A stretch of 64,000 nt of DNA, taken from assembly GCF_046105845.1 (NCBI RefSeq), contig NZ_CP151004.1; one strand, 5' to 3'. The translations under genes were made by a program, and so were the position numbers. The notes beneath the pieces are model-generated. The model was not told the DNA's origin. It was given only the letters and a program-made list of their open reading frames with translations, and did not search any database. The DNA is from Escherichia coli. GTDB lineage: Bacteria > Pseudomonadota > Gammaproteobacteria > Enterobacterales > Enterobacteriaceae. Positions 3,968-49,586 of the stretch are shown in pieces. Numbering within the stretch: the stretch's first letter is position 1; every line of letters begins with the position of its first letter.

Positions 3968-4858
3968 ATGATCAAGAAGACAACGGAAATTGATGCCATC
4001 TTGTTAAATCTCAATAAGGCTATCGATGCCCACTACCAGTGGCTGGTAAGTATGTTTCACAGCGTAGTCGCGAGAGATGCCAGTAAGCCAGAAATAACGG
4101 ATAACCATTCTTATGGACTGTGCCAGTTTGGTCGGTGGATTGATCATCTGGGGCCACTCGATAACGATGAATTACCTTACGTTCGGCTAATGGATTCTGC
4201 CCATCAACATATGCATAACTGTGGTCGGGAATTAATGCTGGCTATTGTTGAAAATCACTGGCAGGACGCGCATTTCGACGCCTTTCAGGAAGGGTTGCTT
4301 TCTTTTACTGCGGCATTAACCGATTACAAAATTTATTTGCTGACGATCCGTAGCAATATGGATGTTTTGACGGGATTGCCGGGTCGTCGGGTTCTTGATG
4401 AATCCTTTGATCATCAGTTACGCAACGCTGAGCCTCTGAATCTTTATTTAATGTTGTTGGATATTGACCGATTTAAATTGGTTAATGATACCTACGGGCA
4501 TTTAATCGGCGATGTAGTACTACGCACCCTGGCAACTTACTTAGCCAGTTGGACGCGTGATTACGAAACGGTTTATCGCTACGGGGGGGAAGAATTTATC
4601 ATTATTGTTAAAGCGGCTAATGATGAAGAAGCATGTCGTGCAGGTATCAGAATTTGCCAGTTAGTCGATAACCATGCCATCACACATTCTGAAGGGCATA
4701 TCAACATTACCGTGACTGCAGGTGTGAGTCGCGCATTTCCTGAAGAGCCTCTGGATGTGGTCATTGGAAGAGCGGACCGGGCAATGTATGAGGGTAAGCA
4801 AACCGGAAGAAATCGCTGTATGTTTATTGACGAACAAAATGTGATTAACCGAGTTTAA
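3968..4858 (+). CDS. dgcZ: Zinc-sensing diguanylate cyclase (CZB domain + GGDEF)
   Basis: ORF 3962..4858; conserved start MIKKTTEIDAILLNL at 3968; active-site motif RYGGEEF present; matches DgcZ/YdeH (296 aa). Confidence 0.93.
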   Translation: MIKKTTEIDAILLNLNKAIDAHYQWLVSMFHSVVARDASKPEITDNHSYGLCQFGRWIDHLGPLDNDELPYVRLMDSAHQHMHNCGRELMLAIVENHWQDAHFDAFQEGLLSFTAALTDYKIYLLTIRSNMDVLTGLPGRRVLDESFDHQLRNAEPLNLYLMLLDIDRFKLVNDTYGHLIGDVVLRTLATYLASWTRDYETVYRYGGEEFIIIVKAANDEEACRAGIRICQLVDNHAITHSEGHINITVTAGVSRAFPEEPLDVVIGRADRAMYEGKQTGRNRCMFIDEQNVINRV

Positions 4859-14593: not shown

Positions 14594-14705
14594 GGTTCAA
14601 GTTTTGGTCAGTGCGATGCAAGGTTAGCTAAAGAGTGACACTTTATCGTTGTTTACCCCTTATACTTTTCGCTGATAACCCAGATACACAGGATAACAAC
14701 CACCA

Positions 14706-23432: not shown

Positions 23433-24884
23433 GTGAAAACACTAAATCGTCGCGATTTTCCCGGTGCACAGTATCCAGAACGTATCATTCAGTTTGGTGA
23501 AGGTAACTTCCTGCGCGCCTTTGTTGACTGGCAAATCGATCTCCTGAATGAGCACACCGATCTGAATTCTGGCGTGGTCGTTGTTCGTCCGATTGAAACT
23601 TCATTCCCACCGTCACTGAGCACACAGGATGGTCTGTACACCACCATTATCCGTGGCCTGAATGAGAAGGGTGAAGCGGTCAGCGATGCGCGTCTGATTC
23701 GCTCGGTTAATCGTGAAATCAGCGTCTACAGTGAATACGATGAATTCCTGAAACTGGCGCACAATCCGGAAATGCGCTTTGTTTTCTCTAACACCACCGA
23801 AGCGGGTATCAGCTACCATGCGGGCGATAAATTCGATGACGCGCCGGCGGTAAGTTATCCGGCAAAACTGACCCGTCTGCTGTTCGAACGTTTTAGCCAT
23901 TTCAACGGTGCGCTGGATAAAGGTTGGATCATCATCCCGTGTGAGTTGATCGACTACAATGGCGACGCGTTGCGTGAACTGGTTCTGCGCTATGCGCAAG
24001 AGTGGGCACTGCCAGAAGCATTTATTCAATGGCTGGATCAGGCTAACAGCTTCTGTTCTACGCTGGTGGACCGTATCGTTACCGGTTATCCGCGCGATGA
24101 AGTGGCTAAACTGGAAGAAGAACTGGGTTATCACGATGGTTTCCTCGACACCGCTGAACACTTTTACCTGTTTGTGATTCAGGGTCCGAAATCCTTAGCG
24201 ACTGAACTGCGTCTGGACAAATATCCGCTCAACGTGCTGATTGTTGACGATATTAAACCGTACAAAGAACGCAAAGTGGCAATCCTCAACGGTGCGCACA
24301 CCGCGCTGGTGCCAGTGGCGTTCCAGGCTGGGCTGGATACTGTAGGTGAAGCGATGAACGATGCTGAAATTTGTGCATTCGTTGAAAAAGCCATCTACGA
24401 AGAGATTATTCCGGTACTGGATTTGCCTCGTGATGAACTGGAATCTTTCGCCAGTGCAGTCACCGGACGTTTCCGTAACCCGTACATCAAGCATCAGCTG
24501 CTGTCTATCGCGCTCAACGGTATGACCAAGTTCCGCACACGCATCCTGCCGCAGCTGCTGGCAGGGCAGAAGGCAAACGGCACACTTCCGGCGCGCCTTA
24601 CTTTCGCATTAGCGGCATTGATTGCGTTTTATCGCGGTGAGCGTAACGGAGAAACATATCCGGTACAGGACGATGCACACTGGCTGGAACGTTATCAGCA
24701 ACTCTGGAGCCAGCATCGTGACCGTGTTATCGGCACCCAGGAACTGGTAGCGATTGTTTTGGCAGAAAAAGACCACTGGGAGCAGGACCTGACGCAAGTG
24801 CCTGGTCTGGTCGAGCAGGTTGCTAAGGACCTGGATGCGATTCTCGAAAAAGGAATGCGCGAAGCTGTACGTCCGTTGTGCTAA
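23433..24884 (+). CDS. uxaB: Altronate oxidoreductase (tagaturonate reductase)
   Basis: 483 aa; GTG start; matches UxaB. Confidence 0.93.
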
Positions 24885-24891
24885 TACTCTG

Positions 24892-24920
24892 AACCCGGTT
24901 TCGACCGGGTTTCTTATTTT
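24892..24920 (+). terminator. Rho-independent terminator after uxaB (aacccggt-ttcg-accgggtt followed by tcttatttt)
   Basis: Stem-loop plus T-rich tail. Confidence 0.7.
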
Positions 24921-25080
24921 ACTATATTAGTTACAACATCCTATGTGCCTTTATCATTAACGGGTGCCATATGCCACACCTGTAAATGTTGTAAGCTTGT
25001 AGGTAATTTGTAAGTAGTGTCTTGAGAATGTGATCGTAATCACGTTTAATAGGACGACTTTTCCACGCCTGAAGATAACC

Positions 25081-25995
25081 ATGATTGTTCGTCCACAACA
25101 ACACTGGCTGCGCCGTATTTTTGTCTGGCACGGTTCAGTATTATCCAAGATATCCTCGCGCTTACTACTCAATTTTCTCTTTTCTATCGCTGTTATTTTC
25201 ATGCTGCCCTGGTACACGCATTTGGGCATTAAATTCACCCTCGCACCGTTCAGCATTCTCGGTGTCGCCATCGCCATTTTTCTTGGTTTTCGTAATAATG
25301 CCGGGTACGCCCGTTACGTTGAAGCGCGAAAACTTTGGGGGCAGTTGATGATTGCCTCACGGTCGTTACTGCGCGAGGTAAAAACGACATTGCCAGATTC
25401 GGCAAGTGTAAGGGAGTTTGCCCGGCTGCAAATCGCCTTCGCTCACTGTTTACGCATGACATTACGCAAACAACCACAGGCGGAAGTGCTGGCTCAATAT
25501 CTCAAGACGGAAGATCTTCAGCGAGTACTGGCTTCGAACTCTCCAGCTAACCGTATCTTGTTAATAATGGGGGAGTGGTTGGCGGTTCAGCGCCGCAATG
25601 GGCAGCTTTCAGATATCCTGTTTATTAGTCTCAACGATCGGCTTAACGATATTTCAGCGGTTCTGGCAGGCTGCGAGCGCATTGCCTATACGCCAATTCC
25701 CTTTGCCTACACCCTGATTTTGCATCGTACCGTTTATCTGTTTTGTATCATGCTGCCGTTCGCGCTGGTCGTGGACCTGCATTACATGACGCCTTTTATC
25801 TCTGTGCTGATTTCCTACACTTTTATTTCGCTGGATTGTCTGGCGGAAGAACTGGAAGATCCCTTCGGTACTGAAAACAATGATTTACCGCTGGATGCCA
25901 TCTGCAACGCTATTGAAATTGACCTGTTACAGATGAACGATGAAACAGAAATTCCAGCAAAAATTCTTCCCGATCGTCATTACCAGCTGACGTAA
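25081..25995 (+). CDS. yneE: Bestrophin-family membrane protein
   Basis: ORF 25030..25995; conserved start MIVRPQQHWLRRIFVWHGSVL at 25081 (304 aa). Confidence 0.88.
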   Translation: MIVRPQQHWLRRIFVWHGSVLSKISSRLLLNFLFSIAVIFMLPWYTHLGIKFTLAPFSILGVAIAIFLGFRNNAGYARYVEARKLWGQLMIASRSLLREVKTTLPDSASVREFARLQIAFAHCLRMTLRKQPQAEVLAQYLKTEDLQRVLASNSPANRILLIMGEWLAVQRRNGQLSDILFISLNDRLNDISAVLAGCERIAYTPIPFAYTLILHRTVYLFCIMLPFALVVDLHYMTPFISVLISYTFISLDCLAEELEDPFGTENNDLPLDAICNAIEIDLLQMNDETEIPAKILPDRHYQLT

Positions 25996-25998
25996 TAT

Positions 25999-26757
25999 TT
26001 ACTCCGTACGCCGGGCAACAATAAACAGACGCGGAAATGCCAGCAGTATCTCTCCGTTCTCTTGCAGTGGATACTGCTCTTCCAGCATCTGATGGTAGCG
26101 CGTAAGAAAATGCTGCTGTTCGCTCTCGGTCAGATCCTGTAACCACGGACGTAATCCAGTGGCGGTCACCCAATCGATAATCGCCTGGTGCGACGGCATC
26201 TGGTGATAGTAGGTGGTTCGCCAGATATCGACCTCACATCCGGCTTCGCTCAAAATATCGTAGTAAGCATGAACGCCAGCCAGCGGCTCACGCCCGCGAT
26301 CCGGGTAGTTTTGTTCCCAGGCAACTTCGCGCATAAGCACATGGGTCGGCTCCAGCCAGTTATCTGGCATCTGTACTGCCAGCACGCCCTGCGGATTAAG
26401 TAAAGAAACCAGATGAGGAAACAATTCGTAGTGGTCGGGCAGCCATTGCAGTGAGGCATTAGCGAAAATCAGATCCAGTGTCTGTTCCGGTTGCCAGTTG
26501 CGGATATCTGCTTCCACAAACTGGCAGTCTGGCAAAGCACTGCGCGCTTCGGCAATCATCGCCGGAGACGAGTCGATGCCTGTTATCCTGGCCGCAGGCC
26601 AACGTTGATGCAGCAGGGCGGTGCTGTTACCTGGGCCACAGCCAAGATCGGCAACGTATTTGATATTCTCCAGCGGCACTCTGGCAAGCAGCTCCACCGC
26701 CGGACGCGATCGTTCAGCGGCAAAGTGCAGATATAAAGAGGGGTTCCAGTCAGACAT
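25999..26757 (-). CDS. tam: Trans-aconitate 2-methyltransferase
   Basis: 252 aa; SAM-binding motif [10 protein letters not shown]. Confidence 0.93.
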
Positions 26758-26813
26758 TTATTTACTCCCGTCAGCGCGTTACCCCTAGTGTAGATAAAAC
26801 TGATAAATTCGCC

Positions 26814-27104
26814 TCACGGCATCAACCCATTGAACAGACGTTTTTTACGCGGCCCGGTCATTAAAGATTCCAGTTTCGCGACACAGGTTTTGTAGTGGGG
26901 CGTGGTTTTATGGAATGCCACTGCGTCTTCATCTTTATAGGCTTCGTAGATATAAAAGCGCGAATTTACTTCAGGGTCCTGTAAGACATCGAAGCGCAAA
27001 TTGCCTTCTTCCTGTACCGAGCCCAGGTGGTTCTGGCGAAAAACTTCGATAAACTCGTCAACCTTGTCTTCATGAACGTTAATTTCAACCAGTGTGACGT
27101 GCAT
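26814..27104 (-). CDS. lsrG: (4S)-4-hydroxy-5-phosphonooxypentane-2,3-dione isomerase
   Basis: 96 aa; matches LsrG. Confidence 0.93.
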
Positions 27105-27127
27105 AATTCTTCTCCTTAAATCCGCAG

Positions 27128-28003
27128 TTACTGTTTTTCACTCAGATAGAGTTCATATGCCCGATCAGCCGTTTCGTTATGGTGTACCACCGCCTGTACG
27201 GCTTTCATCATCGCCACCGGATGGTCAGACTGGAAAATATTACGCCCCATATCCACACCAGAAGCGCCCTGATCGATAGCCTGCCAGCACATTTCCAGCG
27301 CCTCGCGCTCCGGTAACTTTTTACCGCCAGCAATAACAATGGGTACCGGACATCCGGCAACAATCCGTTCAAAACCTTTTTCGACATAATAGGTTTTGAT
27401 AATTTGCGCCCCCATTTCAGCGGCGATTCGGGTAGCCAGCGAGAAATAACGCTGATCGCGCACCATATCTTTGCCCACGCCAGTCACGGCCATGGTCGGC
27501 ATTCCCACTTTCATTCCGGCATCGACCAGCTGAATAATATTTTTGATCGATTGATGTTCATATTCGCTGCCGATATAAACCTGCGCCGCCACCGCGCAAC
27601 TGTTCAGGCGCACGGCGTCATCCATCGATAACGCCACGGCTTCATTACTTAATTCCGCCAGAATAGAGTTCGCACCTGACGCCCGCAGTACCACCGGCTT
27701 ATTGGTCGCAGGGGGGACTACGCTGCGCAAAATGCCGCGCGTACACATTAATACATCGGCATGTTCAAACAGCGGGGCGATATTTATATCAATGCGTTCA
27801 AGTCCGGTAGTCGGCCCCTGAAAATAACCATGGTCAAAGGCCAGCATCACGGTGTTACCCGTTTTCGGATTAAATATCCGTGATAAGCGTGACTGCATTC
27901 CCCAATCCAGCGCACCGCAACCTTTCAGGGTAAAAGGGATATTTTGTTGCGGTTGATCGGTACGAAAATCTTTACCATCTTTAATATCGTCTAAATCTGC
28001 CAT
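27128..28003 (-). CDS. lsrF: 3-hydroxy-5-phosphonooxypentane-2,4-dione thiolase (aldolase fold)
   Basis: 291 aa; matches LsrF. Confidence 0.93.
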
Positions 28004-49082: not shown

Positions 49083-49586
49083 ATGAAAAGACTTCACAAG
49101 AGGTTCCTGTTAGCTACGTTTTGCGCGTTATTCACAGCAACTCTCCAGGCCGCCGATGTCACTATCACTGTTAATGGTCGGGTAGTCGCTAAACCCTGCA
49201 CTATTCAAACCAAAGAAGCTAACGTTAATCTCGGGGATCTTTATACACGCAATCTGCAACAACCTGGCTCTGCATCTGGCTGGCACAATATTACTTTGTC
49301 ATTAACCGATTGTCCGGTTGAAACAAGTGCAGTGACGGCAATCGTGACAGGTTCAACTGACAATACGGGTTATTACAAAAATGAAGGTAGTGCCGAAAAT
49401 ATTCAGATAGAGCTGAGGGACGACCAGGATGCTGCGTTAAAAAATGGCGATAGCAAAACGGTTATTGTTGATGAGATCACTCGTAATGCACAGTTTCCAC
49501 TTAAGGCAAGAGCTATCACGGTGAATGGAAACGCAAGCCAGGGAACGATCGAGGCTCTAATCAATGTGATCTACACCTGGCAATAA
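49083..49586 (+). CDS. ydeR: Fimbrial minor subunit
   Basis: 167 aa with signal peptide; length matches YdeR. Confidence 0.85.
   Translation: MKRLHKRFLLATFCALFTATLQAADVTITVNGRVVAKPCTIQTKEANVNLGDLYTRNLQQPGSASGWHNITLSLTDCPVETSAVTAIVTGSTDNTGYYKNEGSAENIQIELRDDQDAALKNGDSKTVIVDEITRNAQFPLKARAITVNGNASQGTIEALINVIYTWQ

Follow-up and report, generated by a model that had tools for sequence, protein, structure and literature searches.

The excludon, as Sesto et al. are said to have conceived it in 2013, originally meant mutually exclusive expression, in which one gene lowers its neighbour. Of the 370 convergent operons in the study of Conway et al. 2014 (PMC4161252), 276 overlapped, with a mean overlap of 286 nt. 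For the core list of ExcludonFinder, published in 2025 (PMC12288877), the transcript boundaries of a pair had to overlap in at least 50% of 58 RNA-seq sets. Huang et al. 2020 (PMC7373196) used expression of the tombusvirus protein p19, which binds ~21-nt duplexes that RNase III leaves behind; the entries of their Table S3 are duplexes of which both strands were sequenced, with perfect pairing and 2-nt overhangs. In the system of Wang et al. (bioRxiv 10.1101/2022.10.23.513370), collision-assisted termination depends on a stem-loop to fix where the polymerases collide. Here we analysed the convergent junction of yneE and tam in a 64,000-nt stretch of Escherichia coli DNA (contig NZ_CP151004.1 of assembly GCF_046105845.1), hereafter the window, and compared it with these systems. 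The overlap of tam and yneE is already known, being catalogued in public K-12 data sets.

The yneE coding sequence (25081-25995, + strand) encodes a bestrophin-family membrane protein of 304 aa according to the RefSeq annotation, and tam (25999-26757, - strand; open reading frame listing and RefSeq annotation) encodes a trans-aconitate 2-methyltransferase of 252 aa. The two genes are neighbours in convergent orientation with their 3' ends facing each other. The TAA stop of yneE (25993-25995, + strand) and the TAA stop of tam (25999-26001, - strand; TTA on the + strand) are separated by the 3-nt spacer TAT (25996-25998), and the + strand across the junction reads CAG CTG ACG TAA, TAT, TTA CTC CGT. 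The 3-bp separation of the stops claimed in the earlier note was thus borne out by the sequence, the open reading frame listing and RefSeq. The same ends of both genes were given by the open reading frame listing, by RefSeq for E. coli AST215 and by RefSeq for a K-12 derivative; positions 25000-27000 of the window are 100% identical to AST215 and ~97% identical to K-12 derivatives.

If one of the stops had been misplaced in the annotation, the real yneE and tam genes would lie farther apart. Both reading frames close at these stops, however, and the C-termini and protein lengths are kept across genera: YneE of E. coli, Citrobacter and Lelliottia shares the C-terminus ...YQLT*, YneE homologues are 304 aa long (in a homologue search whose listed matches were dominated by Citrobacter), and Tam homologues are 252 aa long in Citrobacter, Leclercia, Enterobacter and Lelliottia. 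Tam also matched the family profile NCBIfam NF002463 over its full length (447.9 bits; residues 1-251 on profile positions 1-257 of 258), and the RefSeq calls were identical in every genome inspected. For YneE, the NCBIfam search returned no NCBIfam model, and the precomputed Pfam annotation of its homologues was PF25539 (Bestrophin_2). Revised stop positions had been named as the observation that would overturn the 3-bp claim; annotation, homologue lengths and the full-length NF002463 match instead fix both stops. No supporting point was found for a misplaced stop codon, which is refuted by the frames, the conserved C-termini, the Tam profile and RefSeq, and we regard the chance of such an annotation artefact as practically negligible.

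A ribosome needs mRNA past the stop codon for normal translation termination. A 3-nt spacer is too short for a terminator, and the mRNA must pass the stop; therefore each transcript enters the partner gene. The earlier note had offered two possibilities, overlap at the 3' ends or termination inside the partner gene. The overlap was confirmed, and the two possibilities turned out to be the same outcome rather than alternatives. Published strand-specific RNA-seq sets from K-12, the kind of data proposed as a check, show overlapping boundaries for tam and yneE: the pair is among the 165 convergent overlapping transcription units of the ExcludonFinder core list, and PMC12288877 names it once, in that list.

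The overlap is further supported by duplexes captured with p19 in K-12. Table S3 of Huang et al. (PMC7373196) places at least two such duplexes within the final 26 nt of tam: in one, UUGUUGCCCGGCGUAUGGAGU (661 reads) is paired with UCCAUACGCCGGGCAACAAUA (264 reads), and in the other, UUGCCCGGCGUAUGGAGUAAA (220 reads) is paired with UACUCCAUACGCCGGGCAACA (270 reads). When placed on the window with one mismatch, this stretch of RNase III-type 21-nt duplexes, represented on both strands, covers 25998-26023. Going by these table entries, RNA of the yneE strand therefore continues for 28 nt or more beyond the yneE stop. The same entries indicate that dsRNA forms in vivo at the tam 3' end in K-12 and is cut by RNase III, and they supply the dsRNA and RNase III products that belong to an excludon besides convergent orientation and overlapping boundaries. 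The tabulated abundance of the duplexes is modest (~2.5-7.6 RPM per strand). In the p19 dsRNA tables of the same study, tam had 38-256 RPM and yneE 41-437 RPM, compared with 4-10 RPM for uxaB and 4-43 RPM for lsrF. In its total RNA tables, tam had 71.7 RPM on the sense strand and 3.4 RPM on the antisense strand; for yneE, the strands had similar values, 11.3 and 19.4 RPM, but which of them is sense is ambiguous, as it is for uxaB, because the strand labels differ between sheets. Rows b1520 and b1521, for yneE and uxaB, carry the strand '-' in one of Tables S1b and S1c and '+' in the other. All transcript data used here are K-12 data; K-12 and the present strain are 97% identical, and one SNP between them lies inside the duplex region.

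A terminator was sought at the junction with a consensus scan covering 24800-27200. The sole site near the junction was a weak hairpin with a 5-bp stem and an 8-nt loop in the last yneE codons (25975-25992, + strand; CGTCA, 8 nt, TGACG, then TAATATTTAC), which is not a credible terminator. Its energy of -4.6 kcal/mol (z +0.43) is no better than that of shuffled sequence, and all folds across the junction, on both strands, had z values between +0.09 and +0.91. The terminator of uxaB, located 1.1 kb upstream, reaches -13.5 kcal/mol. The hairpin stem is broken by a synonymous T>C substitution, giving CGCCA, in four of the six other aligned E. coli strains, and CGCCA is the alignment consensus at this stem. 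An Rfam search of 24700-27300 at E<=1 gave no match. The earlier note had stated that there was no intervening hairpin; this holds for anything credible as a terminator, but the final codons of yneE do contain the weak 5-bp hairpin.

Mapped RNA 3' ends, another check that had been suggested, were looked up in published data. In the Term-seq data of Adams et al. 2021 (PMC7815308), which cover three conditions, no curated 3' end lies in tam or yneE (look-up interval MG1655 1,607,300-1,608,999), so no discrete end is seen in either gene, with the caveat of low expression; the absent ends may fit scattered ends or low expression. The SMRT-Cappable-seq supplements contain no entry for tam or yneE. 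A stable G+C-rich stem-loop with A/T tracts at the convergent stops, one mark of an intrinsic bidirectional terminator, was not found at the junction, and discrete RNA 3' ends at the junction, the other mark, were not found in this Term-seq set, to which the same caveat applies.

A bidirectional intrinsic terminator might nevertheless be hidden in the last codons of yneE and tam, with most transcripts stopping within ~50 nt of the junction. Its + strand part would be the hairpin at 25975-25992 with its T-rich downstream sequence, which the consensus scan did flag, and its - strand part a long imperfect hairpin with a U5 run: the - strand fold of 25950-26030 is indeed an imperfect hairpin across the junction, followed by AAUUUUUG. 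The captured duplexes require only ~28 nt of overlap and would fit such early stops. Neither part, however, folds more stably than shuffled sequence (z +0.43 and +0.09). The + strand stem has only 5 bp with an 8-nt loop and is lost to the synonymous T>C change in four of six other strains; on the - strand, the U run is 5 nt away from a stem that is rich in G-U pairs. With no Term-seq 3' end reported there and a far stronger terminator nearby at uxaB (-13.5 kcal/mol), we consider a hidden terminator very unlikely. The yneE/tam junction is without a credible terminator.

The scan also returned one candidate weak stop site for each transcript within the partner gene. The candidate for the yneE transcript (26292-26316, + strand; GCCCG-CGATC-CGGGT then AGTTTTGTTC; -6.8 kcal/mol) lies ~300 nt past the yneE stop, antisense to tam. 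The candidate for the tam transcript (25380-25405, - strand; TTGCCG-AATC-TGGCAA then TGTCGTTTTT; -7.6 kcal/mol) lies ~600 nt past the tam stop, antisense to yneE; it folds at -9.6 kcal/mol in K-12, and its stem is lost in E. albertii. The conservation of both candidates is uninformative because they sit in coding sequence, and Adams et al. report no Term-seq 3' end at either. On the yneE side, 78-nt windows with C/G ratios of 1.2-1.5 occur within 100 nt past the stop, and on the tam side, windows with C/G ratios of 1.3-1.6 occur at 360-720 nt past the stop; both are modest and not specific. Judged by composition, these C>G windows downstream of both stops would be permissive for Rho loading, and they are not discriminating. 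No bicyclomycin-sensitive Rho region is listed at tam/yneE by Adams et al. 2021 (PMC7815308), where expression is probably too low to inform, and Rho is a putative contributor to ending the read-through RNA.

At the other end of yneE, the same Term-seq set places a strong 'orphan' 3' end in the leader of yneE (MG1655 1609037, - strand; ~25066, + strand, in the window). It sits 15 nt upstream of the yneE ATG (25081), after GUGAUCGUAAUCAC...GACUUUUCCAC, a sequence unlike a canonical terminator. Either processing of the uxaB 3' UTR or premature termination in the yneE 5' UTR could have produced it.

Upstream of tam, the 56-nt lsrG-tam spacer (26758-26813, - strand) contained no terminator-like site in the scan, and PMC8085971 gives the transcription unit as lsrACDBFG-tam. 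Within the spacer, CTACACT (26793-26787, - strand), 30 nt upstream of the tam ATG, resembles a -10 element of the sigma-S type, and a GGGAG Shine-Dalgarno lies downstream of it. The motif suggests that tam probably has its own stationary-phase promoter besides lsr read-through. Because there is no terminator after tam, polymerases must enter yneE when lsr is strongly induced; given CTACACT and a spacer without a terminator-like site, lsr induction and stationary phase should both have this effect.

We consider it highly probable that this is an ordinary, tightly packed, terminator-less convergent junction, with read-through both ways and an overlap that is tolerated. Polymerases from yneE would continue into tam on its antisense strand, and polymerases from tam, having initiated at the promoter of the lsr operon or at the probable tam promoter, would likewise continue into antisense yneE. 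We infer that the read-through RNA, being untranslated, would have scattered 3' ends, produced by Rho, by weak hairpin/U sites within the genes and by exonuclease trimming, rather than one end at a single defined terminator. Where tam and yneE RNAs coexist, they would pair, and RNase III would cut the duplex. Since both genes are weakly expressed, the overlap is probably cheap, and tolerated rather than selected.

The frequency of such gaps was estimated from the annotation of 50 convergent CDS pairs besides tam-yneE, over 314 kb: 6 from the window and 44 from five 50-kb stretches of K-12. The gap was 3 nt or less in 9 of the 50 pairs (18%), and 8 of these 9 overlap: dkgB-yafC, yafS-rnhA, yccX-tusE, flk-yfcJ and yicG-ligB (gap -4 nt each), torT-torR (-28 nt), yafJ-dpaA (-30 nt) and sxy-yccS (-38 nt). 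The gap of yicL-nlpA is exactly 3 nt, as in tam-yneE, and two further pairs have gaps of 6-7 nt; the median gap of the sample was ~45 nt. The seven convergent pairs of the window have gaps of 3, 24, 44, 44, 56, 114 and 397 nt. The 3-nt tam-yneE gap is ordinary, with no excess over the habit of the genome. All 8 of the 8 overlapping pairs of the sample are included in the ExcludonFinder list (PMC12288877), and a listing therefore follows geometry, not function. The window also contains a second tight convergent pair, ydeA-marC (~49396-49419; 14605-14630 of locus L014 in record orientation), whose ends are 24 nt apart, again too close for a normal terminator to fit between them.

Within E. coli, the junction was present in 5340 of 5426 complete genomes and was without indels in the alignment rows shown. 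The 3-nt gap is annotated in every fetched E. coli locus that retains tam. In the alignment, the spacer is TAT or TAA, and the yneE stop is TAA or TGA, with TGA in most strains, K-12 among them. The 3-nt gap is also kept in E. albertii, where the spacer is CTT on the window + strand (AAG on the tam strand) and the lsr operon is absent upstream of tam. Other genera have other arrangements. Between tam and yneE lie a GFA-family gene in Citrobacter and three acetyltransferase genes in Lelliottia. The convergent neighbour of tam is a DsbD-like gene in Leclercia (0 nt away) and in Enterobacter (8 nt away). The yneE stop abuts three different convergent partners, at 3 nt in Escherichia, 8 nt in Citrobacter and 7 nt in Lelliottia. 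The flush boundaries are at 4299-4308 of locus L009 (Citrobacter), 5384-5392 of L012 (Lelliottia), 3759-3760 of L010 (Leclercia) and 3759-3768 of L011 (Enterobacter). The yneE-tam interval thus gains and loses genes, and its boundaries stay flush with the stop codons. Judged from gene order, the tam-yneE adjacency is specific to Escherichia, and tight packing recurs with other partners.

Some E. coli strains have lost tam together with the lsr operon and kept yneE. In E. coli GN4738 (L006 301-441, equivalent to window 25930-26058), ~58 nt of the tam 3' end remain by yneE, and this tam remnant is joined to a hipA remnant. Separately, the protein search returned predicted fusions of YneE with HipA_C, of 385-510 aa, each in a single-member group (P0123, P0125, P0126).

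These gene orders bear on the possibility of a functional excludon, in which tam transcription lowers yneE expression, or the reverse, by polymerase collision and RNase III cleavage of the duplex, driven by the AI-2/cAMP-controlled lsr promoter or by a stationary-phase promoter. The pair is in the E. coli 'excludome' list, and dsRNA and RNase III products are tabulated at the junction by Huang et al. In the read tables of that study, moreover, yneE has about as many antisense as sense reads, whereas tam has ~5% antisense, and the 3-nt length is kept in E. coli and E. albertii even though the spacer sequence changes. Equally tight or overlapping pairs nevertheless make up ~18% of the sample, and all the overlapping ones are listed too. 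The adjacency is not conserved, being interrupted by a GFA-family gene in Citrobacter and by three acetyltransferase genes in Lelliottia; E. albertii is without the lsr operon upstream of tam, some E. coli keep yneE after losing tam-lsr, and no anticorrelated expression has been reported for tam-yneE. We therefore judge a functional excludon to be unlikely.

More specifically, lsr (quorum-sensing) and stationary-phase read-through from tam could serve, under some conditions, as an antisense brake on yneE, the gene for a bestrophin-family channel. We hold this to be quite improbable; if true, it would couple autoinducer-2 uptake to lower YneE via polymerase collision and RNase III cleavage. A regulatory role of tam-yneE read-through is possible but drew no support from the data consulted, and the non-conserved adjacency argues against it. 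On the reading of an ordinary junction, which we prefer, a terminator-less 3-nt convergent junction is routine in E. coli and matters little. More widely, it serves only to recall that no terminator follows tam at the end of the lsr operon.

Compared with the systems described above, tam-yneE resembles that of Wang et al. in being a convergent pair at which head-on polymerase encounters are expected when both genes are active. Unlike the bidirectional terminators of that system, it has no significant stem-loop. The perfectly paired 21-nt RNAs with 2-nt overhangs that Table S3 of PMC7373196 places at the tam 3' end are like the other RNase III duplexes captured by p19. The pair also resembles the convergent excludons of K-12 (yafS-rnhA, torT-torR, sxy-yccS and flk-yfcJ; PMC12288877, PMC4161252), which also have abutting 3' ends on opposite strands and overlapping transcripts. 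In contrast to those pairs, whose coding sequences overlap by 4-38 nt, the coding sequences of tam and yneE do not overlap (gap +3); otherwise there is no structural difference. These results indicate that tam-yneE is an excludon by the ExcludonFinder definition, an assignment made from geometry and transcript overlap and not from mutually exclusive expression.
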